From a virus (lineage: Duplodnaviria > Heunggongvirae > Uroviricota > Caudoviricetes): a stretch of DNA of 43,389 nt. The stretch is from IMG/VR virus record IMGVR_UViG_2778261064_000026, positions 1 through 43,389 of that record. One strand, written 5' to 3'. Every line of letters starts with the position of its first letter. Position 1 is the first letter of the stretch. Below the pieces are notes generated by a model that was not told where the DNA came from, did not search any database, and saw nothing but the letters and a program-made list of their open reading frames with translations. Below are positions 889 to 36,094 of the stretch, in pieces. The position numbers and the translations under genes were made by a program.

Positions 889-2568
889 ATGAAAACTAAA
901 CTGTATTCGTATATTCGCTTCTCGTCTATGCGTCAGAATGATGGTTCGAGTTATGAACGACAAATCAGGATGGCGAGAGAGATTGCGGCAAAGTATGACC
1001 TTGAACTGGTAAATGATTATCAGGATCTGGGTGTATCTGCGTTTAAGGGTGCTAACTCTAAAACAGGGGCGCTATCTCGTTTCCTTGATGCAATTGGTAG
1101 ATCCGTTCCTGTTGGTAGCTGGCTATTCATCGAAAACTTGGACCGTTTATCCCGTGCCGATATTGTCAGTGCGCAGGAGTTATTCCTTTCAATCATCCGT
1201 AGGGGAATAACCATTGTTACTGGCATGGATAACAAGATCTACTCGCTGGATACTGTTACCGCTAATCCGATGGACCTGATGTTCTCCATCCTTTTATTCA
1301 TCCGTGGTAATGAGGAAAGTCAGACTAAGCGCAATCGTACTAATTCAAGCGCACTGATTAAGATTAAATCGCATCAAGAAAATCCCCAGAATCCGGCAGT
1401 GGCAATCGAGGAAGTTGGAAAGAATATGTGGTGGACTGATACCACTTCCGGTTATGTGCTGCCTCATCCGGTGTACTTCCCTGTTGTTCAGGAGATTGTG
1501 GAATTACGGAAGAATGGACGTTCAACCGCCGAAATACTGGATCACCTTAACGAGACATATGCACCACCACCAGCAGTAAGCAACAAGAAGCATTCAAAAT
1601 GGTCACGGGCAATGGTTGAAAGGTTGTTCCATACCCGCGCTTTGATTGGTATCAAGGAAGTCTCTGTAGATGGCGTTAACTATGAGTTAAAGGATTATTA
1701 CCCTCGTGTTATTGATGACCCTACGTTCTATCACCTTAAGAAAAATATTGGTGCTAGAGCATGGAACTTTGGAGACAAGGAAGAAGTTAAACCGATCCCC
1801 CTGCTTAGTGGTATTGGCCTATTGAAATGTGATCATTGCGGTTGCGCTATGGTTAAAGTGAAGGGAACAAACAAACGTTCTGACCAGTATCGTTATACAT
1901 GTGATGCGACCCGTTCACGTAGACTTGATTGCGAGCATCCAAACTGGAGTTTTCGAGGGGATCAATTAGAGAAAGCTGTATTGCAATTGCTGGCTGATAA
2001 AATCTGGATTGCTGAGGATAAGGCTAATCCGGTTCCGGCGTTGAAAGTACAGGTTGATGAAATATCACGCAAGATTGATAACCTGATTGCCCTTTCTGCT
2101 ATGACAGGAGCAACGAAGGAGCTAGCCGATCAGATTACTACCCTCAATAGCGAGCGTGAAACACTCTACAATCAGATCAAGATGGCAGAAGAGGAAATGT
2201 ATTCTGTTGACTCTCAAGGCTGGGAGAAGCTCGCAGAATTTGATTTAGAAGATGTTTATAACGAGGAACGACTAAAGGTCCGGTTTAAGATTAAGCAAGC
2301 TCTAAAGCGGATCGGGTGTAGCAGGATTGACAGAAACAAAAACTTGTTTGTACTGGAATACATCGATGGAAAGACCCAGAGAGTTGTAATAGAAAATTCA
2401 AGAGGAACGAGGAAAGGCCGGATATTCATTGATTTGAAAACTATCAATGATAGGCAGATTCTGGAGAGTAACGGGCTTGTTCTGCATCCATGTTTAGACA
2501 TGCTGACAGATAAGAACTGGAAACCAGAGGAGGAAATACCAGGTCCATTACAGGAATTTGGAATTTAA
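889..2568 (+). CDS. large serine recombinase (integrase/resolvase-type), 559 aa
   Basis: N-terminal YIRFSSMRQ catalytic-Ser motif and LDRLSR motif of serine recombinases; Cys-rich zinc-ribbon-like segment (CDHCGC...C...C); C-terminal coiled coil. Confidence 0.8.
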   Translation: MKTKLYSYIRFSSMRQNDGSSYERQIRMAREIAAKYDLELVNDYQDLGVSAFKGANSKTGALSRFLDAIGRSVPVGSWLFIENLDRLSRADIVSAQELFLSIIRRGITIVTGMDNKIYSLDTVTANPMDLMFSILLFIRGNEESQTKRNRTNSSALIKIKSHQENPQNPAVAIEEVGKNMWWTDTTSGYVLPHPVYFPVVQEIVELRKNGRSTAEILDHLNETYAPPPAVSNKKHSKWSRAMVERLFHTRALIGIKEVSVDGVNYELKDYYPRVIDDPTFYHLKKNIGARAWNFGDKEEVKPIPLLSGIGLLKCDHCGCAMVKVKGTNKRSDQYRYTCDATRSRRLDCEHPNWSFRGDQLEKAVLQLLADKIWIAEDKANPVPALKVQVDEISRKIDNLIALSAMTGATKELADQITTLNSERETLYNQIKMAEEEMYSVDSQGWEKLAEFDLEDVYNEERLKVRFKIKQALKRIGCSRIDRNKNLFVLEYIDGKTQRVVIENSRGTRKGRIFIDLKTINDRQILESNGLVLHPCLDMLTDKNWKPEEEIPGPLQEFGI

Positions 2569-2604
2569 GCGGCCTAAATCGACGTATAACGAGCTAAAAC
2601 AGTT

Positions 2605-2636
2605 AAGGGGTACAGATGTACCCCTTTTTAATTTAA
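2605..2636. terminator. bidirectional terminator between convergent genes
   Basis: aaggggtacagatgtacccctt hairpin with flanking A and T runs. Confidence 0.55.
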
Positions 2637-2641
2637 TTGCG

Positions 2642-3817
2642 TTAGGCAGCGTCTAAGAGAGTATTAAAGTATTCATCCATTAAATCAGGACTGTCGTCAT
2701 CAATACAGAAAAATTCCGGTTTATTGATGCCGTAGAAGTGAGTATGTAGCTTGAATGTATCGTCATCAAATACATCTTTCTGGGATACCCACATATTAGC
2801 CTCGTCCGGTTGATTGGTTAGGTAGTCATAAACCAGTTGCTGTAAGTGTGGTAACTCATCAATAGTCAGAGTTTCCGACCATCCATCCTTGAAATCTTTG
2901 TAGGGTGCTGCATGAGTCTTGAAGCGTTGTTTTACTTCATGCTCTAAATCAACGGCTTTCCAACCATCCTCAAACTCATGAGTAAAGATTAAGCGGTGAG
3001 TGAAGTTGCTCTTTCTGGTTTGCTCTCTCATTCGTTCTTCTGGTTTCCGGGTAGTGATTCCAAATTTAATAAATTTGTCATCTAATAATTGAATATAGAA
3101 ACTAGCCTTACCCTGATAAGTCCGGTTAGACAGTTGCACCAGTTGGTCTTTAATGCAAAGCGGACAAGTGAAAGAATCAGCACATCTTAAATGAGATTCC
3201 CATTCGTGATTATGTGTCTTGCAATAGGTTTTAAATTTAACATCCTTTAGGTGTGGGGTGTTTATGATGAATCCTTTGAAGGTGTAAGGCGTACTCTCGC
3301 AACGTGCATTGATGATTGTCTCTTTGTCCTTAATAACTTCATCAAAAGTCTTGCCACTTCTTACCCGTTGGGATTTTTCAGCCATACAGATTTTGCAATC
3401 AAAATCGAAATCATCTTTGAGAGCATGTAATAGAGATGGCGTCATGATTTGATTGTGTTCAGGGCACAAAACACGGGATTTTGTCTTGTTGCGCCCTTTC
3501 CATTCTCCTTGCCATCCGAGGAATTTCTTTCCCTTCTCATTACAACGAGATTCCATTTTCAACCATACAGCCTTTTCAGTCTGGAGTAACTCACCCCCGT
3601 TAGTATCTTCCAGTTTGCGTAATTTGTAGTCCTTATATTCTTGTGTATCTAAATTGTAGATTCGAAAGTAAGTGTGATTACCCTTCCACGGTAGGATAAA
3701 TCCACCAAATACGAAAGCAGGTTCCAGTTTAGCGATGATTCGTTGTTGGTACTCTTCCGGCGATAAACCGCGAGTTTTCTTAACAAAAGGAATTTCGGCA
3801 GCGTAAGCAAGTTTCAT
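2642..3817 (-). CDS. T5orf172 (GIY-YIG-like) domain protein with several Cys-pair zinc-finger-like motifs, about 391 aa from internal ATG
   Basis: FIKFGITTRKPEERMREQ motif; multiple CxxC/CxxH pairs; start moved to MKLAYAAE because of RBS gaggaaact; track ORF extends to 3928. Confidence 0.5.
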   Translation of the reverse strand: MKLAYAAEIPFVKKTRGLSPEEYQQRIIAKLEPAFVFGGFILPWKGNHTYFRIYNLDTQEYKDYKLRKLEDTNGGELLQTEKAVWLKMESRCNEKGKKFLGWQGEWKGRNKTKSRVLCPEHNQIMTPSLLHALKDDFDFDCKICMAEKSQRVRSGKTFDEVIKDKETIINARCESTPYTFKGFIINTPHLKDVKFKTYCKTHNHEWESHLRCADSFTCPLCIKDQLVQLSNRTYQGKASFYIQLLDDKFIKFGITTRKPEERMREQTRKSNFTHRLIFTHEFEDGWKAVDLEHEVKQRFKTHAAPYKDFKDGWSETLTIDELPHLQQLVYDYLTNQPDEANMWVSQKDVFDDDTFKLHTHFYGINKPEFFCIDDDSPDLMDEYFNTLLDAA

Positions 3818-3876
3818 AGTAGTTTCCTCTAAAATAATAAGCTCACTACTATTTATTAGAGAAAATTGTCTTACTA

Positions 3877-3904
3877 TTGCATTCTCTATCTGGATGTGTA
3901 CAAT
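3877..3904 (+). promoter_or_regulatory. sigma70-like promoter (TTGCAT, 16-nt spacer, TACAAT) for the 3971 gene
   Basis: hexamers read directly from sequence. Confidence 0.3.
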
Positions 3905-3970
3905 ACGCGACCCTAAATCCCAAACCAACCATATTGAGGTTATGCCTATAAGTTAAAAAGTGAGGTCTAT

Positions 3971-4540
3971 ATGATTCCAGTAATGGCTAAAGATATTGTT
4001 TTTACTCCTAAATCCTCCCGTGCTGCAACTCCATCGGCATTAGAACAACGCATTCTGACTCACATCAAAGAGAAGGACTTACCGTTAGTCTTTCATGGCT
4101 TTCTGGGTGAGTTTAAAGGGCTTCATTCAAGAATTGCTCTTACATGTACCCGATGCGGCAATAGAGCCGACAAATCAGCTACCAACCTGCTTAATGAAGG
4201 TAAACGCTGTGCATGTCTCAAAAGTGATTACTTTCAATATAAAGCGGGTGTGCCTTATCTCTATGTAATGAAATCAGGGGATATTGGTAAATTTGGTGTA
4301 ACAAAGTCAATCATCAAGCGACGTGTTAATCTGGGTGTACGCAATCCCGGTCATAACTTTGATATTGTCTTTGCTGGTGAAATGCCATCAATGAAACATG
4401 CTTTAGCCACTGAAAGAGCAATAAAGAGATTACTGGATGTGGGTATAGGCGGGATTGAATACGGCAAAACTGAAACATTCCACTACTGCAATAAATCACT
4501 AAACAATATAAAGAATATTGCAAGTGTGGAGTGGAACTAA
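3971..4540 (+). CDS. T5orf172/GIY-YIG-like domain protein, 189 aa, N-terminal Cys cluster
   Basis: YLYVMKSGDIGKFGVTKS motif; RBS gtgagg; stop overlaps helicase start (TAATG). Confidence 0.4.
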   Translation: MIPVMAKDIVFTPKSSRAATPSALEQRILTHIKEKDLPLVFHGFLGEFKGLHSRIALTCTRCGNRADKSATNLLNEGKRCACLKSDYFQYKAGVPYLYVMKSGDIGKFGVTKSIIKRRVNLGVRNPGHNFDIVFAGEMPSMKHALATERAIKRLLDVGIGGIEYGKTETFHYCNKSLNNIKNIASVEWN

Positions 4541-6030
4541 TGCAAGATATTAAAATTCATTTTCAAGATTACAGTTTCGTTAAGGTTGATTGCTCTCCTT
4601 CTATCGGAATGGAATTAAGAGATTATTTCTCGTTTGAGGTTGAAGGGGCTAGGTTTAGCCCCCGCTACAAGTATTCCGGCTGGGATGGACGAATAAGACT
4701 GTTTACGCATGAAAATATCCTACCAATTGGACTATTAAAAACGTTGGGTGTCTTCGTTAAAAATATGGGCTATTCAGTCTGGATTGACCCGCGATTGCTT
4801 GAGAAGGAAGATGTAACCAAAGACGCGATTAATGAATGGATTGATTCCCTAGAAGTGTATTCCGGTTCCAATAAAATCAATCCTTACTGGTATCAAAGGG
4901 AGGCAGTCTTTCAGGGTATCCATAATCGCCGTAGAATGCTGGTTCTTCCTACCAGTGCCGGAAAGTCATTGATTGCTTGTATGCTGTCTCGTTGGTACTT
5001 AGAGAACTACACCGGAAAGATTCTAATCATTGTCCCGACTACATCGCTGGTGGTTCAAATGAGGGATGATTTTGTTGATTATCGGTTATTCCCTTATGAA
5101 GCAATCCATACAATGATGAGTGGTAGCGGGAAACATCCGGGAGACAGGTTAATCACGGTTAGTACCTGGCAATCAGCTTGCAAGATGCCTCCTGAATGGT
5201 TCAAACAATATGGAATGTTGATAGTTGATGAATCGCATAAGGCTAGTGCCAAAAATATTACCAATATCATTAACGGAATGAATCATTGCCAGTTTAAGAT
5301 CGGTATGACTGGTTCCCCGAAAGAATCAAAGTGCCATTTAATGCAATACGTCGGTATGTTCGGTGATATTTCTAAGATCGTGAGTATTGACCGCCTGATG
5401 GAAGAAGGGCAGGTGACAAAACTGAAAATTAACTGTCTTTTCCTTCGTTATACCGATGAGGAATGTAGCGCGGTTAAGGGGCGAGAATATGCGGAAGAGA
5501 TCAAGTACATCACTTCGCACGGGAGACGAAATAAGTTTGTGTGTAATTTGGCGCTAAAACTCGCTAAGAAGAACGAAAACGTATTTCTGATGTTCCGTAA
5601 CACTAAACACGGAAAACTTATGTATGACGCGTTACAGAAGGTACATGATAAGGTTTATTACATTGATGGTGGAGTTAAGACAGAAGAACGTGATGAATTT
5701 AAGAAAATGGCGGAGGGTGACACCGGGATCATTTGTGTTGCGTCTTATGGTGTGTTCTCTACTGGTGTTTCAATTAAGAACTTGCACCATGTCATTTTCG
5801 GTCATCCGGTGAAAGAATCAACTATCGTTCGTCAGAGTATTGGCCGTGCATTGCGTAAACATGGTTCTAAGGATATTGCGACCGTCTGGGATCTTATCGA
5901 TCATCTGTGTATATTCGGTCGTAACGGAAAAGTCAAGCATAAAAATTATGCGGTAAAACATGCACTTGAGAGAATCCGCTATTATCTAACCGACAAGTTC
6001 AGCTATGCAACTAAAACAATTGCTATATAA
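4540..6030 (+). CDS. SF2 DNA helicase, UvsW-like (recombination/repair helicase), 496 aa from ATG 4540
   Basis: Walker A LPTSAGKS, DExH box IVDESHKAS, motif VI QSIGRALRKHG; N-terminal domain and motif order resemble my recollection of T4 UvsW. Confidence 0.7.
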   Translation: MQDIKIHFQDYSFVKVDCSPSIGMELRDYFSFEVEGARFSPRYKYSGWDGRIRLFTHENILPIGLLKTLGVFVKNMGYSVWIDPRLLEKEDVTKDAINEWIDSLEVYSGSNKINPYWYQREAVFQGIHNRRRMLVLPTSAGKSLIACMLSRWYLENYTGKILIIVPTTSLVVQMRDDFVDYRLFPYEAIHTMMSGSGKHPGDRLITVSTWQSACKMPPEWFKQYGMLIVDESHKASAKNITNIINGMNHCQFKIGMTGSPKESKCHLMQYVGMFGDISKIVSIDRLMEEGQVTKLKINCLFLRYTDEECSAVKGREYAEEIKYITSHGRRNKFVCNLALKLAKKNENVFLMFRNTKHGKLMYDALQKVHDKVYYIDGGVKTEERDEFKKMAEGDTGIICVASYGVFSTGVSIKNLHHVIFGHPVKESTIVRQSIGRALRKHGSKDIATVWDLIDHLCIFGRNGKVKHKNYAVKHALERIRYYLTDKFSYATKTIAI

Positions 6031-11000: not shown

Positions 11001-11842
11001 TTCGGATCACATGCACCGTTTGAATGCAAATCCATCTGGCGTACTTGCTTACGTACTTTCAGGAATGAATCAACGTTAATGTTTTCAATTGGTACTGATA
11101 GACCATATTTTTCATTTGTTAGGTAATGGAAAATCTGGTCCACGCCGTTAGTGCTTGCCTCAATAGCATTGGTTTCGAGGTTACGGATTTTTAAGCCCAT
11201 AACATCGACCGCTACCTGGCTATTAGGCTGGAGAATATCAACACCAGCAGCCAAAGATTTGTCATCACGACGTAAAACAATACACATGGTCGCAATGCCG
11301 TTACCCTGATACCGATCATCCCAATCTGCGCCCAAATGATGTTTAGCTAAATCCAATGCGGTGTTAGGATTTTTACCCGTGCGAAACTCGACTTCTAACA
11401 CTTTGCGGTATTCTTCTTTAATGTTTCCTTTATCGAGAACACCATCACGAATTGTCATATTCTGGCTAATGAGAACATTTTTATTATCGATGTGCAGTGC
11501 TTTAAAGTGATCGATCTCACCTTCTGAAATAGCAAAAATTTGTACCAGTTTGTTGTTTTCACGCTGTGAAATTGCTTTGTAAACGCAGATTGCACCCGTG
11601 CGGGTAGTACCGAAAAGGACGGGTAATACTGTCTTAGGATCGTTTGATGTTCCTAGTGTCACCGCATTATCTGGGCTTTGTACTTTAGGTGTTTTTGGTG
11701 CGCCTACAGTGGAAGCGATCAAGGTCATTGCACCAGCAGCCATACCGATAGCGACTGCGGTCATAACAGAAAATGTTGCAGCAGCAGCCATCCCAGCAGA
11801 CGCACCAGCAATAACCGCGCCTACCAATACTTCAAATCCCAT
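8066..11842 (-). CDS. central tail fiber / tip attachment protein J-like, 1258 aa, with lambda-J-like C-terminal receptor-binding domain
   Basis: C-terminal segments TVRIEDDHPFDRQIIVP, VIDMPAGHGPVTLTF and VMVTKKAATGISVS match my recollection of lambda gpJ C-terminus; size and position after K-like gene. Confidence 0.8.
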   Translation of the reverse strand: MGFEVLVGAVIAGASAGMAAAATFSVMTAVAIGMAAGAMTLIASTVGAPKTPKVQSPDNAVTLGTSNDPKTVLPVLFGTTRTGAICVYKAISQRENNKLVQIFAISEGEIDHFKALHIDNKNVLISQNMTIRDGVLDKGNIKEEYRKVLEVEFRTGKNPNTALDLAKHHLGADWDDRYQGNGIATMCIVLRRDDKSLAAGVDILQPNSQVAVDVMGLKIRNLETNAIEASTNGVDQIFHYLTNEKYGLSVPIENINVDSFLKVRKQVRQMDLHSNGACDPNASFKENLTSLMQTFGGVMFESFGRITLKLDAPDIVKHTFNEDNIMMGKVSLKTGGTNGYFNTINAMYQEPSIDYSEQMLRYPADAENDATIRQDGRIIAKDIEYRFVKSKAQIDKLASIERNKSRITQVISFMTTDAFTAEVWDVISVTYDELKLNNSLWRITAIDRSIDSGIAGMMTITATEYNSQVYTDLNYAATPDNRPTGLPDSMTVQKPTNFRIKATGETIHGKNVTLTWDAPEDFNRYGFQIDYRVSGSPNWIKLGQTSQQIFNINALAKDRSYDYRVCAFGIIARSEWVELVNQNPEVTYELPTPVIRIKNQGSTPGTFEGNDLIIEWENQQALDVVINGETNKFSDLFEAYIIKVTNKAGKSIQYRTRDPESWTYTLDMNQFNGLSRELTVEVSVKGYNNSESAPARLVAINQQHKPMKGFSARGGFNTAFVSWADDVEHDYAGSIIQYATDNTFSDARAVTTNSVSHTSFDLADGDYYIRGAHYDIFGMDDAVWSEPYFMQMKSTISWDDQDKEALEDLIGLQDRLDETIADAIAQAGANADAKIDAMHKQITTETGQTVQASADTLKSLIATSEQASSTKIDQVKAELKGDITNEVSASATTLKQAIATSEAASASKIDQVRVEMDGKIAGVNQEADVKIDALKGTINSKYNLAVNADGRVAGIHMSATNDPAQPTRIIFTADKIAVAPQNGSEVCPFGIEDNKVYLDNAMIRNAAIGTAQISDASITTAKIGTAQINGAHIQHAQIGTGHIIDGSIDNAKIGNYIQSYNWNGNDGWYIGKDGTCHFRHANIRGHLVADSGEMNNVTINSSCRILGMLDANQVRGDFVKAIGRRFPHWDENPSLGYPGYPQGTITVRIEDDHPFDRQIIVPAISFGGLNAREGSNNNTYYDNCRLIVRKNGAELYNRAYGRQTGLYSAVIDMPAGHGPVTLTFEVSSSAINNWTPSTWISDLTVMVTKKAATGISVS

Positions 11843-12276
11843 TATTCACCCCCGAATCTATAAACTTGTTCATATTCAATGTCTGAAACAGGAATGGTCA
11901 TCCAGATACCATCTTCTTCAACGAGGCCATAACCGGAATAATGAGGAACTACGGAATAATATTTGCGGTTCCCTAATTTGTGGGCTGTGACCAGTAAGTC
12001 GCCGTCCTGTAAATCATCAGTGACTAATTTGAAATGTTTCTTAATTGGTTGAAGGATATTTGAATACCCGCTTAATTCTTTGCAGATTTTCAAGCCTTCT
12101 TCTTTAGTTGAATATTTTTTATAAAGAGAATTATATAGGTCAGTACCAGCGAGAATATCGATGATCTTACATGCAATTAGATTGCAATCATTCTCGCCTT
12201 GAACGAACTCCTGACCTATTAAAGAATTGATGTAATCAGTGATAAGCCTAGTTTTTAGCATGTTGAATACCTCCAT
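11842..12276 (-). CDS. tail assembly protein K-like (NlpC/P60-type Cys-His peptidase fold), 144 aa
   Basis: GENDCNLIAC Cys motif and downstream His; TAATG overlap with J-like start. Confidence 0.5.
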   Translation of the reverse strand: MEVFNMLKTRLITDYINSLIGQEFVQGENDCNLIACKIIDILAGTDLYNSLYKKYSTKEEGLKICKELSGYSNILQPIKKHFKLVTDDLQDGDLLVTAHKLGNRKYYSVVPHYSGYGLVEEDGIWMTIPVSDIEYEQVYRFGGE

Positions 12277-12307
12277 GCTGTTATTTACTAGGCTTAGGGA
12301 GAAGGGA

Positions 12308-13078
12308 TTATTTCTTGAAGTCTTCGTACATTCTACGAAGGTTGTATTTTGGATGGCCTAAGCTAACCATGATTTGACTCAATTTAACCGCGCCGGGTTT
12401 ACCGTTTTCAATCCACACGCGCCGGATTTCATCGTAATGCTGCCAACAGCCTTGACCTTTAGCAATACGTATAGAATGTGTATATTTCTTGGTAGAGCTT
12501 TCTGGTCGCTTGCGCCCTAGATGTGCTTTTCTAATCTTTTCGCGTGTTTCTTCTGATACAGGTTTACCATAACGGGGGTTATTCTCTCCACGAGTAGCAG
12601 CCGATAATTTAGCTAATATTTCTGGGTTTGTTACTTTTTTGCCTCTCATTGCACTAGGTTTACCATAGCGATGGTTCTTTTCACCCATTCGAGATGCCGA
12701 CATTTTAGCTCTAGATTCCGGTGTATGTTTTCTTCCGTAAAAAGGATGATTTTCACCACCATCAAAACCACCGACACCACCAGGAGCTATATTAAGACAT
12801 ACACCACGCCCCCATTTTTCGCGTGCTGCCTCCACTAACAGGATTTCACATTCAAACGCTTCCTCGGCAGTATCAAACAATTTTGAACGAACAACTTCAA
12901 ATTCATATATCGGGGTTTCTGATTCTTTATTTTTACGCTTCATCATTTTAATAACTTTACCCGATCCCACATATCCATCGTCTAGATTTGTGGTTGTTCT
13001 TTTTCCGACGTAATGATAGATTTTACCAGAGCGATTAGATTTAATAGTGGTGTGATAAACGTAATGGAATTTTTGCAT
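12308..13078 (-). CDS. GIY-YIG homing endonuclease with NUMOD3-type DNA-binding repeats, 256 aa
   Basis: N-terminal YHYVYHTT...GKIYHYVGKR...GYVGSG GIY-YIG motif; three repeats HPFYGRKHTPESRAK / NHRYGKPSAMRGKK / NNPRYGKPVSEETREKIRKAH. Confidence 0.75.
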   Translation of the reverse strand: MQKFHYVYHTTIKSNRSGKIYHYVGKRTTTNLDDGYVGSGKVIKMMKRKNKESETPIYEFEVVRSKLFDTAEEAFECEILLVEAAREKWGRGVCLNIAPGGVGGFDGGENHPFYGRKHTPESRAKMSASRMGEKNHRYGKPSAMRGKKVTNPEILAKLSAATRGENNPRYGKPVSEETREKIRKAHLGRKRPESSTKKYTHSIRIAKGQGCWQHYDEIRRVWIENGKPGAVKLSQIMVSLGHPKYNLRRMYEDFKK

Positions 13079-27440: not shown

Positions 27441-29345
27441 TTAGAACGATGTTACCCAGCTACGGCCTCTATTTGGACGTCTGGCGATGTTTTGACGTTG
27501 TGGTCGTGTGATTGGCTTAGTTTCTTCGATTTGCTCGTCAGATTGCGTTTCAGGAGCTTTTACGGGTTCTTCTGGTTCACGGTTCAAACTATCTTTGATG
27601 GCTTCGAGTTTTTCCCATGACATTTTATTGAGTACATGGCGAGAAGCAGCATAGGAATAAGCCAGGCAGTCGAGAGCCTCGTTTCGTTGCTGACCAACTT
27701 TTACCCAACGTGTGGTGTTACCCTGCCGTTTCAACTGTTCAGAAAGCAATTGCTCGCAATAGTCATCAGGAACGTCGCCAATCTGGAAGACAGTGTGAGG
27801 ATCGCCATCTCTCAAATTCCGGTTAATCATTTCACGGATCATCGTTTTAAGGTTGTTTACGCCCAGAATTTTAAGGGTAAAACCACCCGTTCTTGTGTCT
27901 TTTACCGGAAGGATTGGTGCATCAACATTGCTTGCGCCTTTAATGGCGGTTAGATTTTGCCACCGACTACAGAATCGATAGATCACTTGCGTAGCTCGTC
28001 CGTTCGATGAGTCCACGAAAGCAGATAACATCGGGATTCGTTCACCGGATCGGGTATAGAATTTCGCTTTCAGGAAGTTGTAAAGCTGGTCATATGCTGG
28101 TGATTCGTGGCGTTCGCAGTTCACATCATAGAATGATCGGTGATCAACTACGCATAGCCCTTTACGAGAAATACCCAGCAAGGTAGATTCCAGACGGTCT
28201 TTTTGCTGGTCAACTCCACCAACCAGAGCCAGTACATCATCAGGAATATTGTCTAGGCTAATATCAGTTTTCAGCGTTTCTAATTCGTCGGCTGTGCGGT
28301 CTTCGTTAAGATCATCGAAGGTTTCACCGAGGACTGTATTGTAGAACGTTGCCAGGGACATATTCGCGTAGCTATCAGCAAAGTCCACCACACACGCACG
28401 GATAGAACTAAACGGAGACATAAGGCGGTTAGCATGAAAACCGATTACTTCCGCGTTTGGTTCGGTGGCGACCCATTCTCCCTTAGCAACAGCACGTAGG
28501 CGATCCCCTTCGGTCCAATCGGTTTCACATTCAGGGCAACGGTAAACGGCTGTATCTGGGTTGGGTAATGATTTACCGTTAATCGTATGCCAATCGAAAT
28601 GTACGTTACTCCATTCCATTACGTGCTTGTGTCCGCAATGCTGGCAAACGACATGATATTTTCTCTTATCCGAGAGTTCCCATTGTTGGTTAATCGCCCC
28701 ATCACGAGCGGTTGGAGTGGAAGCAATTACGATCCTTGCATCTTCCCCGAAAGTGGTTGCGCGTTGTTCCGCTAGCTGGATCGGGTTCCCTTCGTCTGAT
28801 TCATCAGCCGCATCAACTTCATCAAGAATAATCAAAGGGAGTGTCTTACCGCGCAAGTGTGATGGACTGTTCAGCGACATGAAATACATGAATGATCCAT
28901 TACGAAGCTGAATAATCGATGAGTTGTTAACAGCATTACGGTCTGATTTGTCGGTGATCATCGCTTTTAATTCTGGCGTTGCCTCTAATACTGGCTTCAC
29001 CTTACCAGCGATCCAAGAATTTAGTTCCCTAACGTTACTTTGCAACACCCCAATATTCGTAGGGTTACTCGCGATCCGATGGAAGATAATTCCGTTAAGA
29101 ATCATGGTCTTACCCAACTGCGCCGAACATTTAAACACAATTTTTCTACGGTCTTCGGTGATCGCGTCCATCATTCCACGTTGGAAGGGATGCAATTTAA
29201 TTAGCGATCCGGCTTTAACACCATCGGTTGCAACTACATTAGCCTCTACCCATTCGCTAGGTTTCATCGTTTTAGGTGGGCGAATTGCCGCAGAGATATT
29301 TTTAAGAATCTTTTTTAATTTGGCCTTATTAGAAATCAGTTTCAT
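27441..29345 (-). CDS. terminase large subunit, lambda gpA family, 634 aa from MKLISNK
   Basis: Walker A KCSAQLGKT; CQHCGH zinc motif; NTVLGETF and RNEALDCLAYSYAA segments matching gpA-family landmarks; RBS gaggg before ATG 29345; track ORF extends to 29420. Confidence 0.85.
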   Translation of the reverse strand: MKLISNKAKLKKILKNISAAIRPPKTMKPSEWVEANVVATDGVKAGSLIKLHPFQRGMMDAITEDRRKIVFKCSAQLGKTMILNGIIFHRIASNPTNIGVLQSNVRELNSWIAGKVKPVLEATPELKAMITDKSDRNAVNNSSIIQLRNGSFMYFMSLNSPSHLRGKTLPLIILDEVDAADESDEGNPIQLAEQRATTFGEDARIVIASTPTARDGAINQQWELSDKRKYHVVCQHCGHKHVMEWSNVHFDWHTINGKSLPNPDTAVYRCPECETDWTEGDRLRAVAKGEWVATEPNAEVIGFHANRLMSPFSSIRACVVDFADSYANMSLATFYNTVLGETFDDLNEDRTADELETLKTDISLDNIPDDVLALVGGVDQQKDRLESTLLGISRKGLCVVDHRSFYDVNCERHESPAYDQLYNFLKAKFYTRSGERIPMLSAFVDSSNGRATQVIYRFCSRWQNLTAIKGASNVDAPILPVKDTRTGGFTLKILGVNNLKTMIREMINRNLRDGDPHTVFQIGDVPDDYCEQLLSEQLKRQGNTTRWVKVGQQRNEALDCLAYSYAASRHVLNKMSWEKLEAIKDSLNREPEEPVKAPETQSDEQIEETKPITRPQRQNIARRPNRGRSWVTSF

Positions 29346-29430
29346 GTAATTACCCTCATTACGAAATATGAAGGTATTTATTAAATTGTTGATTTTTTGA
29401 TAAATACGGGTATTAATCAAAGGGGGTTGT

Positions 29431-30036
29431 ATGCTAATTAATCAGCAACAAAGAGATGTATTAGAATTAGCCTTTTCTTGTTGTACCGATCATGAATATC
29501 GTTTGCCAGTTAAGCACCATCACAAGAAGACTGATTACACAACATCTGGATTTAGTCGTGAGGAAGCGAAAGAGATTTTAATAGAATTTTACCGCGATAA
29601 TGGTTATACAGACGTTCACAACTTCTTTAAGAAGCATAGAACATCACATACAGAGTTCCAGAGAGTCCGAGATTGGTTTGATTTTGATATCAAGCGTTAT
29701 TATCGAGTGGATGACGGTCCGATCTATCGGTTGCAGTGGAAGCCGATCCGAGAAGTGTTGAAACAGAAGAGATTGAATCACGCAATTACACGCTATCGTA
29801 ACGAGGCTTTCAAGAAAGGCTATGGTGATACAAGGGAACTATTCGTTGAACTCGCTAACGTGCGTTATAGCCACTATTACAACGATCCTAAAGGGTTCTT
29901 TGAAGTGCTTCGCAAGGTTGATATAAGTCGGGGTACATACTATTCACGGTTGAAGAAGTACGGGATTAAGGCAGAGTTCTTTATGAGTATTGACGATGGA
30001 GAACTTTTTCCGATAAAATGTAAGTCCTCTAAATAA
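29431..30036 (+). CDS. hypothetical protein, 201 aa, with C-terminal HTH module paralogous to the small HTH proteins
   Basis: C-terminal RELFVELANVRY...GTYYSRLKKYGIK aligns with the 60-aa and 77-aa proteins; RBS aaaggggg. Confidence 0.4.
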   Translation: MLINQQQRDVLELAFSCCTDHEYRLPVKHHHKKTDYTTSGFSREEAKEILIEFYRDNGYTDVHNFFKKHRTSHTEFQRVRDWFDFDIKRYYRVDDGPIYRLQWKPIREVLKQKRLNHAITRYRNEAFKKGYGDTRELFVELANVRYSHYYNDPKGFFEVLRKVDISRGTYYSRLKKYGIKAEFFMSIDDGELFPIKCKSSK

Positions 30037-30064: not shown

Positions 30065-30298
30065 ATGACTATGACTACTAAAGCTACTCGCGGTCGTCCT
30101 TGCCGTTTTACCCGTGAACAGATGGCTGATATTGCCTATGCTTACTATACAGCGGATCGTGGTAAGGAAGCGAAAGAACAGATTCTTAGTGAACATGGGA
30201 TCTCAATCGCCCAATTCTATAAGAATATGAAGAAGTTAGACATTAAATTCTATGTTCAGATCGGTGATGGTCAGATCGTAGAAGCAACAGGTTTTTGA
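30065..30298 (+). CDS. small HTH DNA-binding protein, 77 aa (FTRE...KKLDIK family)
   Basis: RGRPCRFTREQMADIAYAYY...GISIAQFYKNMKKLDIK, transposase-OrfA/resolvase-like HTH pattern. Confidence 0.45.
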   Translation: MTMTTKATRGRPCRFTREQMADIAYAYYTADRGKEAKEQILSEHGISIAQFYKNMKKLDIKFYVQIGDGQIVEATGF

Positions 30299-31783: not shown

Positions 31784-32236
31784 TTACAGCATATCTAAGC
31801 CTTCATCGTAACCGTAGAAGCCACCGTGAGAAGAGAAACAGATTGGTGTGTAGTCGTCGTCATCTTCGTCTTGTTCATCGTGTTCTGGGGCTTCCTGAGC
31901 GGGTTGTTTACCATAATCAGCCATAATCTGGTCAAGATCGGCGATCCCATAGTAAGAGCCTAAATCAACGTCATATTCACGAACATCAAACGGCAGGTCA
32001 TCACGAACAATAATTGCCGGAATGTTGTTGTATTGTTCACGACCTTCATCAGTAAAGCAGTCTACGATCACCGTAGGGCGACCATTACGTTTAAGAGCAT
32101 AGAAAGCAGTTGAGAAATTGGAGTCTTCGGAATGACGAATGATGTTATAACCACGATTAGCGAAAACATGCATCATAGCCAGATTATCATCATGGTTCAG
32201 ACCCAGAAGAATGAAAGGAGTTTTAGTATTGATCAT
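31784..32236 (-). CDS. hypothetical protein, 150 aa, with acidic C-terminal tail
   Basis: ORF track; RBS agagga; EHDEQDEDDDDY tail. Confidence 0.4.
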   Translation of the reverse strand: MINTKTPFILLGLNHDDNLAMMHVFANRGYNIIRHSEDSNFSTAFYALKRNGRPTVIVDCFTDEGREQYNNIPAIIVRDDLPFDVREYDVDLGSYYGIADLDQIMADYGKQPAQEAPEHDEQDEDDDDYTPICFSSHGGFYGYDEGLDML

Positions 32237-32497
32237 AGTGGAAATCCTCTAAAAGAAAGTGAATCAAACAAAGTACACTATTATTTATAACGAGAAATTT
32301 TTGTCTAATTTGAAAGGAATTGGTATTCAGTCGGCTTCGCCTCCTTCATAGATTTTGATTAAATCATCATCAAAACGAAGAAGTATCTTTAGAATATAAG
32401 AATCTTTCTTTTGGAGAAATTATAATCAGGAAGCAATTTAGCAACCGAAGGTTGCAATCCCGAAGGGATAACCAATACCTTTCATGATCATTAAAGT

Positions 32498-32720
32498 GAT
32501 CTAGAATCATCTAGTAACCAGTTAACTACTATTATCTTCAAAGTGATTATTACTATCTTTCTAGAATCAGTTAGTAACTAGTTTAAAAATCCCTTTCAAG
32601 AAAATCCTTTCAGAAGTGATTCTCGATGCCACGCAGTGGCGTCGCAGACGTTTGAGAGTGAGCGAAGCGAGCGAGCAAACTAGTTAATTCCTTCTAAGAC
32701 CATCTAGTATCATCTAGTTT
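32498..32720. repeat. cluster of CTAG-rich palindromic repeats
   Basis: ctagaatcatctagtaaccagttaact, ctagaatcagttagtaactagtt, catctagtatcatctagtt; palindromes AGTTAACT, AACTAGTT, TTCTAGAA. Confidence 0.4.
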
Positions 32721-32865
32721 AAATTAGTGTTACTAGAAGTAATTGGTTAGCGCTTCGCGCAGTCGGGCTACGCCCTCCTAATATCTTTTTGGTTATTTGT
32801 TGTTTTTGGTTTTACACATGAGCGTAGCGAATGTGTTATATAATATCTATGCACGCCCGATTCCC

Positions 32866-33110
32866 CGTTTTTGCCCCTCGCTAAGTTAATGTTTTATAAA
32901 GAGTTTTTCTCACCAATCCTTTTCGGGGGCAAATTTCAGGGGCAAAAATTAGATTTTCAGGGGCAATTATTGGCATTTCAGGGGCAAAAATGAGGGGCAA
33001 AATCACCGTTTCCCAGAATTTCAGGGGCAAAAATAGTAGGTTTCAGGGGCAAAAATGGGATAGTGAAATCTAGGGGATTTTGGTTCAGGGGCAAAATTCA
33101 GGGGCAATTT
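32866..33110. repeat. iteron array: nine direct copies of (T)TCAGGGGCAA(AAAT) plus one inverted copy
   Basis: GGGGCAA cores at about 32926, 32939, 32960, 32981, 32995, 33024, 33046, 33088, 33101; inverted at 32871; spacings mostly 13-14, 21-22, 42 bp. Confidence 0.65.
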
Positions 33111-33148
33111 TCATAGTGTAGTGCTAGTGTAGGTTTGAAAGTCCTTTC

Positions 33149-33177
33149 TTGACACTATGTAGGTTTGGTGCTATACT
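33149..33177 (+). promoter_or_regulatory. near-consensus sigma70 promoter P1 (TTGACA, 17 nt, TATACT)
   Basis: read directly from sequence. Confidence 0.6.
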
Positions 33178-33206
33178 TGACAATTTGAGAAAAAATGTGG
33201 TATAAT
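33177..33206 (+). promoter_or_regulatory. consensus sigma70 promoter P2 (TTGACA, 18 nt, TATAAT), overlapping P1
   Basis: read directly from sequence. Confidence 0.6.
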
Positions 33207-33626
33207 ATTTGTATTGAAAGTGAAAATTTACCGATTTTCCTTCCTATTGTTATCACCGTGTTAAATTGTTATATGTTTGTGAAGATTTGGATCTGAGAGA
33301 AAATCTTGTAACAAATCTTTACAATTCATAGCTCAATTAATGCTCACCGCTTTAGCAAAAAGTGCTATGCATTTTTCTAAATTGATTGAATAAACATCAA
33401 TTTGGTTAATTCGTGTTCTTCTCTTTAGCAATTCGTGCTGCGGTTTAACACATTTAACACGTCTGATAACATCTGAATAACATTTTAACATATCTCTGTT
33501 ATAAATACATATATAAGAGATAAATGTGAGGGGTTGAAAAATAAAATACAATCCCCATATAAATAATAGTGAGCGGTTAACGCTCTTTTTTAAGAAATCA
33601 TTAATCCAGATTTAGGAGGATTTAAG

Positions 33627-33809
33627 ATGGCACGACCTGTTAAGTTCACTCGTGAAATCGTTTTAGAAATGGCAAAGCGTTATTTTGAACTGACACCTGA
33701 TGTAGTGATGGGTGAATGGTTTAAAGGTGAAGGTATTGATCAATCAACCTTCCACAAACTCTTAAAGAAGTATGACATTAAAGTAAAGATTACCGCAGAG
33801 GTGTGGTAA
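33627..33809 (+). CDS. small HTH DNA-binding protein, 60 aa (FTRE...KKYDIK family)
   Basis: MARPVKFTREIVLEMAKRYF...GIDQSTFHKLLKKYDIK; RBS aggagga. Confidence 0.5.
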   Translation: MARPVKFTREIVLEMAKRYFELTPDVVMGEWFKGEGIDQSTFHKLLKKYDIKVKITAEVW

Positions 33810-33922
33810 TAACCTTTCACTGAGAATTATATGATGGCTTTAAAAAAGAAAAAGCCTCCCTTGTTGCAGCAAAGGAGGCTTGAAATGAACAATTAAAACT
33901 AACTTTCCACGGAGTATTTATA

Positions 33923-34864
33923 ATGTTATTTTCCGCTAACTTTTTCACTAACGAAGTAACCAACGCTAAAGCAGTTATCAAATTTGGCACCGAAGCAAAC
34001 AAGAAGATTCAGCCGAAAGTTGTTGCTCATGTTTCCTTTGCGCAGCAGAAATCCGCTTTCGCTGGCTTTAAAGCACATCGTGAAGCACTGATCGCGGCTG
34101 GCTTTGGTGTTGACGGTAAACTGCCTAACGGCATTCGTAAAGCAATCGACCGCGTTAAACCTGCTAAAGACGTTGCAGTAGACCGCATCGTTACTTTTAC
34201 CGTTAAGAACTCTTCTGAACTGTTCCACCTGGTTATTGCTGGTGATACTGCTATCGTTTCCGCTCCTAACATGGATTTTCAGGATACCGCTGATTGCCAG
34301 ATCACCTTCGGTCGTCGTAAAGAAGTTACCGGAAAAGCTAAACTGAACTTCACTAAATCCGGCAATCCTTACTTTGCTGTTTTCTTTAACAGCCACGCTA
34401 CCGAAAAAGAAGTTGTAGAACTGGTTGCTTATGAAGGTGAAGAGAAAGAACGTATTGAATCTTGCGAAGCATTTCTGGAACTGGAAGCACAGGTGAATGC
34501 TGTTTCTCCGGTTGTTGAAGATCGCTTTGCTGCACTGGAAGCACAGATCGCAGAACTGAAAGCTGCACTGGAAGAAAAAGACCAGATTATCGAAGCACAG
34601 AAAGCTGAGATTGAAGAACTGAAAGCTAAAGAAGTTGCTCCGGTAGCAGTAGTTGAAAACGCGGCTGATGAGGCCGCAAATGATGAAGTAGAAGTGAAAA
34701 TCGATGTGATGCGTGATCCGATGGCTGCACTGCAATTACTTCGTTCTTTTAAGGGCAAATCTCATTTTTCTAGTGATGTAGAAGATGAGGAAGAAGAACA
34801 GAAACGCAATGCTGCAATGCTTCATGATGAAATGTACGGTACTAACTTTTCTTACTGCCAATAA
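33923..34864 (+). CDS. hypothetical protein, 313 aa, with central coiled coil and acidic patches; likely highly expressed
   Basis: host-optimal codons (ctg, cgt, ggt, aac, ttc); first large ORF downstream of tandem consensus promoters. Confidence 0.5.
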   Translation: MLFSANFFTNEVTNAKAVIKFGTEANKKIQPKVVAHVSFAQQKSAFAGFKAHREALIAAGFGVDGKLPNGIRKAIDRVKPAKDVAVDRIVTFTVKNSSELFHLVIAGDTAIVSAPNMDFQDTADCQITFGRRKEVTGKAKLNFTKSGNPYFAVFFNSHATEKEVVELVAYEGEEKERIESCEAFLELEAQVNAVSPVVEDRFAALEAQIAELKAALEEKDQIIEAQKAEIEELKAKEVAPVAVVENAADEAANDEVEVKIDVMRDPMAALQLLRSFKGKSHFSSDVEDEEEEQKRNAAMLHDEMYGTNFSYCQ

Positions 34865-34867
34865 AAA

Positions 34868-34886
34868 AGGGACTCCGAAGAGTCCC
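34868..34886 (-). terminator. terminator-like hairpin
   Basis: gggactc-cgaa-gagtccc preceded by A6 on plus strand (U-run on minus). Confidence 0.4.
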
Positions 34887-34970
34887 TAGTAAGTTTAGGT
34901 TAGGTTTTGCACAACAAAGATGAGGTTATAATGAACATAATGCTACATTATTCTTTAAAGCCAGAAAAAT

Positions 34971-34990
34971 AACCGCCCCCGAAGGGGCGG
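34971..34990 (-). terminator. terminator-like hairpin
   Basis: ccgcccc-cgaa-ggggcgg preceded by aaaaataa on plus strand. Confidence 0.4.
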
Positions 34991-35527: not shown

Positions 35528-36094
35528 TTAAGACACATCAAATTCATCGTCTTCTTCTGGTTCTTGTTCCGGTTCATCCATTAATGGTAATTCTTCTTCC
35601 TCGTCTTCACCAAAATCTGCATTTTCGAACAAGTCCCCTACTTCATTTAAACGACGCTCGATGATCTCCCTTAGCTTATTCTTCAATGTTTTCTGATCAG
35701 TGGCAGATTCGAGAATTTCTAAAGCGTCGATTGTGGCGATCTGCAAAATAGTCTGCTTCACTTTTCCGCAATATTCCGCTAGTTGCTGTTCTACATACCC
35801 GACAGGAATCAGGAGATTCATTGCTTCCTGGTTCTCTCGTTCGGCTGCGTCCGCTAATGCTCTCTCGCGGCGTAACTTCTCTACGTCGATTTGTTCTTTG
35901 ACAGTAGTTTCCCTGAGTGGACTGATGATATTTTTTGCTATCCATTCGGTCCCTTCCTTGAGCGGTACGCGTCGTGTATTGGTGTTAAATGGCATTCCTC
36001 GTTCTTGCCATTTCTTAGCGGCGTTAATTGTATAGCCGTATAAGCGGGAAATTTCTGTAAGGGTTAATTCTTCTTTCATCCGGTTATCCTCCAT
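35528..36094 (-). CDS. Nu1-like DNA-binding protein (candidate terminase small subunit), 188 aa
   Basis: N-terminal LTLTEISRLYGYTINAAKKWQERGMPF resembles lambda Nu1 winged-HTH (TIQNWQEQGMP) as I recall it; very acidic C-terminus. Confidence 0.4.
   Translation of the reverse strand: MEDNRMKEELTLTEISRLYGYTINAAKKWQERGMPFNTNTRRVPLKEGTEWIAKNIISPLRETTVKEQIDVEKLRRERALADAAERENQEAMNLLIPVGYVEQQLAEYCGKVKQTILQIATIDALEILESATDQKTLKNKLREIIERRLNEVGDLFENADFGEDEEEELPLMDEPEQEPEEDDEFDVS

Follow-up and report, generated by a model that had tools for sequence, protein, structure and literature searches.

The locus examined here poses the question of what a highly codon-adapted gene without a recognizable domain does in a temperate phage. 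The DNA is a stretch of 43,389 nucleotides (positions 1 to 43,389 of IMG/VR record IMGVR_UViG_2778261064_000026; hereafter the window), an Escherichia coli prophage of ∼36 kb inserted into ycdX beside ghrA. The gene is an open reading frame (ORF) for a protein of 313 amino acids, annotated in RefSeq as ‘hypothetical’ (WP_000898985.1). A preliminary description made from the sequence alone had proposed an early host-takeover, DNA-mimic/anti-restriction, nucleoid-associated or single-stranded DNA (ssDNA)-binding role. Absent from that description was an array of short repeats (iterons) at 32864-33112, which sits 0.8-1 kb upstream of the ORF and just upstream of tandem promoters. By comparing this module with those of related prophages, we found that the type of N-terminal domain in the protein is always matched to the sequence of the iterons. 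This suggests that the 313-aa protein probably binds the iterons sequence-specifically and, more tentatively and with somewhat less than an even chance, that it may be the phage's origin-binding replication initiator (‘replisome organiser’).

Every related prophage, whether in E. coli, Salmonella or Edwardsiella, has the same order of elements in this slot: iterons, a TTGACA/TATAAT promoter, a leader, a gene for a 60-aa protein (p60), a hairpin with a Shine-Dalgarno sequence, and a large ORF of 305-394 aa. Relatives of p60 in Salmonella and Edwardsiella stand in the same prophage type, in ycdX or hicB. The slot ORFs have codon adaptation index (CAI) values of 0.53-0.72. Their N-terminal ∼170 residues are basic (isoelectric point, pI, 9.5-10), with the exception of type D (L027a, pI 6.3), and are followed by a heptad coiled coil at the same position in every type and an acidic E/V/K-rich tail (pI 4.1-5.1). 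The N-terminal domains fall into five types, A, A′, B, C and D, of which A is not detectably homologous to B/D (HHalign probability 0.1%). Each type was paired only with its own iteron (Table 1), with no exception among 45 loci and 12 further metagenomic loci, or 57 in all. The co-variation is also graded, since A′ domains are 28-30% identical to A and the two iterons share TTCA..GC.A. Iteron sites are found at one locus per genome. The p60 variants, in contrast, are shuffled independently of type: type A occurs with p60 proteins 60-100% identical to that of the window, and type B with proteins 53-100% identical to it.

Natural swaps between closely similar phages delimit the segments that change together. 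The L004 prophage (type A) and the L030 and L025 prophages (type B) encode small (TerS) and large (TerL) terminase subunits that are 98-100% and 97-99% identical, respectively, and p60 is 98% identical between L004 and L025, yet their iterons differ and their large ORFs are unrelated. Similarly, L033 has a p60 that is 100% identical to that of the window, yet carries type-B iterons and a type-B ORF. The IMG/VR prophages L130/L050 (type A) and L144/L058 (type B) have 13-kb left arms that are 98.2% identical without a gap, and the right arms of L050 and L058 differ by two non-homologous segments only, namely the ∼500-bp iteron array and the large ORF, where the non-homologous stretch runs exactly from its start codon to its stop codon. 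Homology is retained across everything that separates the two segments, which comprises promoter, leader, 60-aa gene and hairpin. This swap pattern excludes TerS, p60 and a third co-varying gene in those arms as the partner of the iterons. We had considered that the iterons might be cosB sites for the Nu1-like TerS, and rejected this because TerS is 100% identical between phages with different iterons. As an iteron binder p60 was rejected on similar grounds, being 98-100% identical across types with an invariant recognition helix; p201, Rha and p150 were also rejected, as none tracks the types, and no third co-varying gene, such as a repressor, was found over the 13-kb left arm or 6 kb of the right arm. 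Since the core promoter lies outside the swapped cassette, the array is not simply the operator of that promoter. Direct sequence-specific recognition would most simply explain why a cis repeat and one protein domain are exchanged as a pair. The graded relation of A and A′, the basic N-terminal domain, and a chimeric relative (P0131) in which ORF6N, a predicted DNA-binding domain, replaces the N-terminal domain all lend support to recognition.

The arrays have an origin-like anatomy, with 5-10 direct iterons at 11 or 21-22 bp phasing, one inverted copy, and an adjoining AT-rich stretch (27-37% GC versus a mean of 43%). In the window, the cores of the direct copies start at 32925 (one mismatch), 32938, 32959, 32980, 32993, 33023, 33045, 33087 and 33100, giving spacings of 13, 21-22, 30 and 42 bp. 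The inverted copy contains an exact AGGGGCAAAA on the - strand at 32869-32878, and an equivalent inverted copy is present in L004. Exact iteron 10-mers are confined to the array locus within the 43-kb window. When up to one mismatch was allowed, nine matches were obtained in the window versus 3.3 expected, and none of 100 shuffles reached nine. Around the array, a divergent control region of 1.4 kb separates the p150-Rha-TerL genes, which read leftward, from the rightward p60/ORF genes.

The ORF is a real gene under purifying selection, because its 13 distinct alleles have 29 polymorphic codons with synonymous changes only versus 8 with amino acid changes (pN/pS, the ratio of nonsynonymous to synonymous polymorphism, 0.058). 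Long ORFs on the opposite strand of the gene are mirror artefacts of the kind that codon bias usually creates. A Shine-Dalgarno sequence, GGAG, lies at 33908-33911, eight bases 5′ of the ATG. The preliminary description rightly called the gene codon-optimised: with Sharp-Li weights, derived from highly expressed E. coli genes, its CAI of 0.643 is the highest among 35 window ORFs, level with the tail tube (0.639) and above the capsid (0.513), and its codon usage is like that of the most abundant phage proteins. Most ORFs in the window score 0.23-0.40, and the flanking host gene ghrA 0.26. The same description had placed the gene directly behind strong promoters. Tandem near-consensus sigma-70 promoters do exist, with 11/12 and 12/12 consensus matches and both with an extended -10, and a TTGACA..TATAAT promoter occupies the equivalent place in L004, L023, L025, L027 and L030; however, they lie ∼720 bp 5′ of the ORF, with the leader, a terminator, the 60-aa gene and a hairpin in between. 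Because the ORF is downstream of sigma-70 consensus promoters, early action on DNA is probable, and the sequence characteristics suggest that the product is probably an orphan, abundant, DNA-directed early protein.

The layout given earlier, an N-terminal domain followed by a central heptad coiled coil and acidic stretches, was also borne out. The peptide RFAALEAQ...KAKE corresponds to residues 201-237, the heptad register extends over residues 197-236, and DVEDEEEEQ corresponds to residues 285-293 (34775-34801). The N-terminal domain has a pI of 9.6 and a net charge of +7, and only residues 171-313 form an acidic half (pI 4.3). In AlphaFold2 models the N-terminal domain has the element order b1-b2-b3-a1-a2-b4 to b8, reproduced at low confidence in both the full-length and the N-domain model, and residues 182-236 form one long helix. 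A conserved C-terminal motif, LHDEMYGTNFS, is encoded at 34820-34852, and the motif [LH][DM]xM[YF][GD]T is common to type A and the otherwise unrelated type B and C proteins. The tails are modular, as type-A N-terminal domains occur with either an LHDxMYGT tail or a WNKY...RKAA tail (L052, L004). The allele in the window ends in -SYCQ. Most slot alleles (L023-L030, L027, L004, L003, L053) end in a hydrophobic residue plus Ala-Ala (-YAA, -FAA, -RAA, -KAA), with an expanded AYAYAYAYAYAA end in L053. These -AA termini recall ssrA-like ClpXP degrons.

As the preliminary description had stated, no known domain could be recognized. Protein and profile queries of Pfam, PHROGs, NCBIfam, PADLOC and PDB sequences returned only coiled-coil noise, including sub-threshold bZIP/DivIC/ZapB-type Pfam matches to the zipper of the 313-aa protein and its relatives. 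A word-indexed search of 5.8 billion proteins gave matches that were all at least 99% identical. Exhaustive HMMER analysis of 1.84 billion representatives added two diverged full-length relatives, P0124 (50% identical) and P0128 (34%), together with P0131, fragments, and the false-positive repeat proteins P0130, P0132 and P0133. P0131 is a chimera in which ORF6N (Pfam 1.2e-20) is fused to the same coiled coil and tail and has the same downstream flank. A search started from the most diverged relative returned that relative alone, and no relatives outside this prophage lineage were detected either by exhaustive HMMER or by fold. No homologue of type A, B or C proteins was found by DNA and protein searches of sequenced phages and plasmids; types A and B were unmatched in a TBLASTN analysis of 72,556 plasmids; and GTDB species representatives had no match to the N-terminal domain and one irrelevant Clostridium match to p60. 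A back-translated scan of IMG/VR with the C-terminal motif returned only the same prophages and an unrelated nuclease family. There was no Rfam match, and the literature mentions neither accession WP_000898985.1 nor any ycdX prophage.

Searches for particular families were equally negative. Neither the 313-aa protein nor the other slot types matched the replisome-organiser families (Pfam Phage_rep_O, Phage_rep_org_N) in Pfam, PHROGs or NCBIfam. In the 313-aa protein we found no Rep_3 winged-helix homology (its predicted secondary structure is beta-rich, from a low-confidence AlphaFold2 model), no NTPase motif, and, in Pfam, none of the HTH_3/XRE or S24 peptidase domains typical of CI-type repressors. 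PADLOC gave no meaningful match, the only one being sub-threshold LmuB (E 0.004) over the coiled-coil/tail region. The AlphaFold2 models of the full-length protein and N-terminal domain were mediocre, with a predicted local distance difference test score of ∼57 and, for the N-terminal domain, a predicted template modelling (TM) score of 0.63. In Foldseek searches of the PDB with both models, and of BFVD, no match surpassed E 0.14 and TM ∼0.2, a weak negative given the low-confidence models. The best matches, Bet v 1-like and EspG, were rejected, and there was no match to gp2.5, Ocr or any ssDNA-binding protein (SSB) with the same low-confidence models. None of the homology-based tests placed the 313-aa protein in a family, and by sequence it appears to belong to no described family.

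In the mechanism that we propose, the basic N-terminal domain (∼residues 1-170) would recognize the (TTC)AGGGGCAAAA repeats, whose phasing of about one or two helical turns would place bound proteins on one face of the DNA. The zipper coiled coil (197-236) would dimerise or oligomerise the bound protein, and the acidic tail with its conserved LHDxMYGTxxS motif would contact a conserved partner. If the protein is an initiator, the origin would comprise the iterons and the adjoining AT-rich region, which transcription from the tandem promoters would help to open. We favour an initiator because of the phasing, the AT-rich flank, the single locus, the position of the promoters outside the cassette, DnaA boxes in L004, the lack of another candidate and the agreement with a lambdoid pattern, in which initiator specificity and iterons are known to diversify in matched fashion. 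No other initiator candidate was found in the early arms, which encode a serine recombinase, GIY-YIG/CapR proteins, a UvsW-like helicase, a Rha-family protein, small helix-turn-helix (HTH) proteins and TerS. The L004 DnaA boxes, three consensus copies (TTATCCACA) at 9692, 9712 and 9851, lie within ∼200 bp of inserted DNA that separates the 60-aa gene from the large ORF. Strain BS74R-D (NZ_CP063332.1; L061, L062) carries one prophage of the lineage in ycdX and a different one in hicB, and their type-A modules are identical. A replication function accommodates this slightly more readily than an immunity determinant would. In these two prophages the 60-aa and 313-aa proteins are identical and the Rha, p150, TerS and 94-aa proteins differ. 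The hicB gene is a second integration site of the lineage (L028; L061/L062).

Several observations weigh against an initiator that binds the iterons. Support for DNA binding comes from co-variation, which is indirect, and only about five independent types exist, so that few exchange events underlie it. Types vary in how the array, the AT-rich DNA and the promoter are spaced and ordered, and in Edwardsiella three small ORFs stand between the array and the 60-aa gene. There is no similarity in sequence or fold to any initiator family (the fold models being of low confidence), and no DnaA box was detected in the module of the window. The phage encodes no helicase loader or replicative helicase, its sole helicase being UvsW-like. 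A CAI at the level of the tail tube is unusual, as initiators are normally scarce. Finally, a promoter, a small DNA-binding protein, a ∼300-aa protein and a possible antisense RNA make up a layout like that of P22 immI (arc-ant-sar).

In a different proposal, the protein is a type-specific transcription regulator of lysis and lysogeny (an immunity repressor, an autoregulator or activator, or an immI-like module) that binds the iterons to control the divergent early promoters, and the types arose through heteroimmunity selection. We consider this unlikely, while noting that it would accommodate the location of the array in the divergent control region, a weak leftward promoter-like site (33183-33154) that would read through the array, and the extra single sites that flank the promoter in Salmonella type-B loci. 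It would also accommodate the slot variant with ORF6N, which is typical of proteins annotated as anti-repressors, and the lack of a recognized repressor in this phage. The conserved antisense terminator and -10-like box over the translation start of the ORF are a further point in its favour, and recall the sar RNA at P22 ant. However, the core promoters remain homologous despite the array swap, E. coli type-B loci have no promoter-proximal sites, and sites occur at one locus only rather than at other promoters. The coexistence of two distinct prophages with an identical module in one genome speaks mildly against an immunity system, the very high CAI is atypical for repressors, and the search of the two arms revealed no third co-varying gene that could encode a repressor partner. 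The paralogous p60-like HTH proteins (p60, p75, p201) are better candidates for such a regulator.

Alternatively, an abundant protein might coat the array to position or pair genomes (handcuffing), or to titrate or block phages of the same type, with no role in initiation. A centromere-like, genome-organising or exclusion element of this kind would fit the predicted abundance, a coiled coil able to bridge molecules, a cassette diversity of the sort produced by frequency-dependent selection, and the contiguous, 11-bp phased iterons of type D, which resemble ParR-type centromeres upstream of their own operon. In lambda, origin fragments that bear iterons exclude rep-lambda phages (PMC3349717). 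We judge it distinctly unlikely, as no partner NTPase (ParA/ParM/TubZ) is encoded nearby, the phage integrates by a serine recombinase, all 59 of 59 places are chromosomal with no TBLASTN match on plasmids, and the protein has no homology to ParB, ParR, omega, ribbon-helix-helix or winged-helix-turn-helix families. A related and quite unlikely possibility is that the slot holds at least three unrelated, new sequence-specific DNA-binding folds (A/A′, B/D, C) in a stoichiometric, zipper-linked ‘genome tag’ that marks, pairs or sequesters genomes of the same type. Being non-catalytic, such a tag would explain an amount typical of structural proteins. It could serve to discriminate self from non-self, to exclude superinfecting phages in a type-specific way or, through rapid turnover, to license copy number; the -AA ends of several tails, like those of ClpXP degrons, would fit such turnover. 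To our knowledge, this mechanism has no characterised phage counterpart. The non-specific roles proposed in the preliminary description (a DNA mimic or anti-restriction protein, host takeover, a nucleoid-associated protein, or a gp2.5/gp32-like ssDNA-binding protein with an acidic tail) are compatible with the high CAI, with a predicted b-b-b-a-a-b-b-b-b-b order that an oligonucleotide-binding (OB)-like fold could have (low-confidence model), and with a rapid N-domain diversification that could mirror an arms race with host defences. The acidic C-terminal half with its aromatic C-terminal motif is reminiscent of SSB tails. Nevertheless, such roles are disfavoured and in our estimation highly unlikely, because the co-variation is the pattern of sequence-specific recognition of a cis site and not of a mimic, a DNA coat or an SSB. 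They leave unexplained the strict coupling of N-terminal domain and iteron, in 57 loci and across conserved intervening DNA, and a mimic would not be expected to have a basic N-terminal domain. The Foldseek and PADLOC searches also gave them no meaningful match, the models used in Foldseek being weak. It is scarcely credible that the protein is a virion component or assembly factor (decoration, head fibre or scaffold) that owes its CAI to structural abundance. The CAI does equal that of the tail tube, the N-terminal domain, coiled coil and variable distal tail recall the layout of a head fibre, and PHROG matches to head proteins were obtained; these were weak, sub-threshold (E 0.006-0.04) and confined to the coiled coil. 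No confident match to a virion structural protein, which the preliminary description had singled out as evidence against its proposals, was found. The gene lies outside the late operon and in the opposite orientation, behind sigma-70 consensus promoters; its distance to TerL is 4.5 kb and that to the capsid gene 8.6 kb. The capsid gene already has a fused protease/scaffold region (Peptidase_S78 + Phage_capsid), and the iteron co-variation would be unexplained.

An initiator that recognizes the iterons can also be compared with known systems. Lambda O is a protein of ∼300 aa expressed from an early promoter, with an origin-specific N-terminal part that differs between phages in step with the iterons and a conserved C-terminal part that recruits the next replication factor; its origin depends on nearby transcription. 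Ori-lambda consists of iterons and an AT-rich region and confers type-specific exclusion (PMC3349717). The module described here is alike in protein size, in a type-specific N-terminal domain matched to the iterons, and in phased iterons beside an AT-rich region. It differs in that there is no sequence similarity to lambda O (Pfam/PHROG), the iterons are 0.8-1 kb upstream rather than inside the gene, the protein has a leucine zipper and a long acidic tail, the phage has no P-like helicase loader gene, and the codon adaptation is far above that expected of an initiator. The Rep proteins of iteron plasmids (RepA/RepE/pi/TrfA, ∼22-bp iterons) offer two-turn direct repeats with an inverted copy and the gene downstream, DnaA boxes as in one relative here (L004), and, for many plasmid rep genes, an antisense RNA over the translation start, which this module may possess too. 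However, winged-helix Rep_3-type homology is lacking, no plasmid carries a relative, the phage integrates, and the promoter is not overlapped by the repeats. In Staphylococcus aureus pathogenicity islands and phage-inducible chromosomal islands (SaPI/PICI), related elements differ in a matched initiator-specificity region and iterons while the remainder is conserved, and SaPI Rep is a Walker-motif helicase. The matched specificity swaps are thus similar, whereas the 313-aa protein has no NTPase motif or homology to Rep.

P22 immI (Pant-arc-ant, sar) shares with this locus a strong promoter, a small DNA-binding gene, a ∼300-aa gene and a candidate antisense RNA at the ribosome-binding site, and one slot allele has an ORF6N N-terminal domain of the kind annotated as anti-repressor. 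P22 Ant, in contrast, binds a repressor protein, whereas here the variable domain tracks a DNA repeat and there is no co-varying repressor gene, nor is there homology to Ant or Arc. The basic N-terminal region followed by a five-heptad zipper recalls bZIP proteins, and the Edwardsiella zipper matches bZIP_1/bZIP_2 (E 5.8e-5, below the cut-off). The predicted N-terminal region is, however, a beta-rich globular domain of ∼170 residues and not a basic helix continuous with the zipper, so that the likeness is one of composition and heptads only. Ocr/ArdA-like mimics have a uniformly acidic surface and lack sequence-specific DNA partners, whereas the 313-aa protein has a basic N-terminal domain (pI 9.6, net +7) and is strictly coupled to iteron sequence. 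The operators of CI-type repressors overlap the promoters that they regulate, whereas here the swapped array leaves out the core promoters and the sites are at a single locus.

Table 1. Features of the module in the window, iterons of the five types, and selected genes of the prophage
Feature	Position	Strand	Remarks
Large serine recombinase	889-2568		left arm
UvsW-like helicase	4531-6030		PF21241, E 3e-34
Inverted type-A iteron, single copy	32864..32878	-	AGGGGCAAAAACGGG on - strand; ∼45 bp left of direct array; repeat search
Iteron array, nine direct copies of (TTC)AGGGGCAAAA	32921..33112	+	repeat search and motif scan
Tandem near-consensus sigma-70 promoters	33149..33206	+	TTGACA-17-TATACT, TTGACA-18-TATAAT; TG upstream of both -10s
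AT-rich untranslated leader, 25-33% GC	33213..33600	+	∼390 nt, strongly self-complementary
Small conserved terminator hairpin ending leader	33571-33591	+	GAGCG-loop-CGCTC plus T6
p60, conserved 60-aa basic HTH-like protein	33627..33809	+	always immediately upstream of large ORF
Hairpin with 12-bp stem, then T-run	33852..33881	-	terminator scan; conserved
Large ORF	33923..34864	+	313 aa, ATG start
N-terminal domain, residues 1-170	33923..34432	+	basic; type-specific part; putative iteron-recognition domain
Five-heptad coiled coil/leucine zipper, residues 197-236	34511..34630	+	heptad scan; putative dimerisation element
Acidic tail, mostly disordered, residues 237-313	34631..34861	+	DVEDEEEEQ and C-terminal motif
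Two G+C-rich hairpins	34868-34887, 34973-34990 (within 34868..34990)	-	T-runs on - strand
Nu1-like TerS	35528-36094		phrog_57, E 9e-17
Type A iteron			(TTC)AGGGGCAAAA; about 9 copies
Type A′ iteron			TTCA(A/G)ATGCTAC; 9 copies
Type B iteron			TAGTGTAGG; 3-9 copies
Type C iteron			TGGAATCCGGGGG; 5 copies
Type D iteron			(AC)GGGGA(T/A)A; 7-10 copies, 11-bp period, contiguous

Between the promoters and the ORF, the leader is strongly structured, with a minimum free energy of -100.9 versus -66.2 ± 4.8 in shuffles (z -7.3). The leaders of relatives give z -3.6 (L004, 9201-9465), z -5.8 (L025, 7687-7970) and z -3.1 (L027, 7667-7975). Their sequence is mostly unconserved between types, with short boxes kept, namely CTCTTTAGCAATTCGTGCT at 33421-33439, and TTATAAATAC. 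The leader could be a regulatory or primer RNA, or could act at the DNA level as inverted repeats of an origin. Whatever the iteron type, the p60 protein is 53-100% conserved, with hardly any variation in its putative recognition helix (EGIDxSTFHKLLKKY). The sequence of the hairpin at 33881-33852 is that expected of a strong intrinsic terminator for leftward transcription, antisense to the 5′ untranslated region (UTR) of the ORF. All five types retain this - strand hairpin and its T-run, and in Edwardsiella L021 the stem differs in sequence. On the same strand a TATAAATAC box (33914-33924) overlaps the start codon of the ORF ∼30 nt upstream of the terminator, which suggests that the two may define an antisense RNA of ∼60-70 nt over the 5′ UTR and Shine-Dalgarno sequence, comparable to P22 sar or to the RNAs that control plasmid copy number. 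No -35 element was found for this candidate RNA. On the 3′ side, the two hairpins at 34868-34990 terminate the convergent TerS/94-aa operon and bound the ORF.

Other motifs were noted in the early region. The motif GTTATAAATA(C/A) has five copies with up to one mismatch (31216, 32281, 33498, 33914, 35512) versus 1.2 expected, and none of 100 shuffles reached five. All lie in the early/regulatory region, mostly just 5′ of gene starts (at p150, the 94-aa gene, Rha, the leader, and antisense at the start of the ORF). Candidate roles for the motif are an operator or a promoter box, the latter either of extended -10 type or particular to the phage (compare the similar T4 late TATAAATA). Three G+C-rich palindromes (32329-32350, 32620-32690, 32761-32785) stand within the otherwise AT-rich intergenic region and are kept in L004 with compensatory changes (CGATGCCACGCAGTGGCGTCG versus CGATGTCCCGTAGGGACGTCG); these could be the cos site of a GpA/Nu1-type phage, or structured RNAs. 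Between the leftward genes and the iteron array there is a further family of repeats, TCTAGAATCATCTAGTAAC and ATCTTCAAAGTGAT (32484-32726), with similar TCAAAGTGAT repeats in L027, and its members are possible operators of the leftward promoter. A search for LexA boxes gave a single match, inside the 313-aa ORF and not above chance.

Among 5,426 complete E. coli genomes, 57 (∼1%) carry the prophage lineage, and its closest phage TerL is only 44% identical. The protease-capsid fusion, a lambda-type portal and a GpA-type TerL are all encoded on the - strand, opposite to the 313-aa gene, and lysis and tail genes are also carried. TerS and TerL (27441-29420) are ∼6 kb apart, a separation unusual for a lambda-type packaging system, and the interval takes in the present module and the entire divergent control region. 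The left arm (889-6030) also encodes a 428-aa GIY-YIG (MUG113/T5orf172) protein with CapR domains and a 189-aa CapR-domain protein. That a temperate phage of 36 kb encodes a UvsW-type helicase hints at replication linked to R-loops or to recombination. A 201-aa protein (p201; 29431-30036) contains two copies of the HTH-like module of p60 (...ISRGTYYSRLKKYGIK...), and the adjacent 75-aa protein (p75; 30072-30298) contains one (RGRPCRFTREQM...FYKNMKKLDIKF). The proteins p60, p75 and p201 therefore form a small paralogous family of putative DNA-binding proteins and are candidate repressor/Cro-like regulators. The first leftward gene, p150 (31784-32236, 150 aa, CAI 0.48), likewise encodes a C-terminal stretch that is strongly acidic, EHDEQDEDDDDY; searches of all libraries gave no homologue, and p150 is as variable among relatives as the regulators. 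A mimic-type early function would suit p150 better than the 313-aa protein. The Edwardsiella relative L021 carries, beside its attachment site, a 543-aa reverse transcriptase-TIR fusion (RVT_1 + TIR; 11413-13044), a defence-type cargo gene that is absent from the window.

These analyses turn the anonymous WP_000898985.1 into one half of a testable protein-DNA recognition pair with five natural specificity variants, and the clean array/ORF cassettes in near-identical phages allow direct mix-and-match tests of specificity. They also illustrate that very high codon adaptation alone does not point to an anti-defence or structural role. The fold of the N-terminal domain is possibly new, and if the N-terminal domains do prove to be new DNA-binding folds, they would provide orthogonal protein/operator pairs for synthetic biology. 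If the iterons and the 313-aa protein are indeed an origin and its initiator, they would define how an unstudied lineage of temperate phages in E. coli, Salmonella and Edwardsiella replicates.

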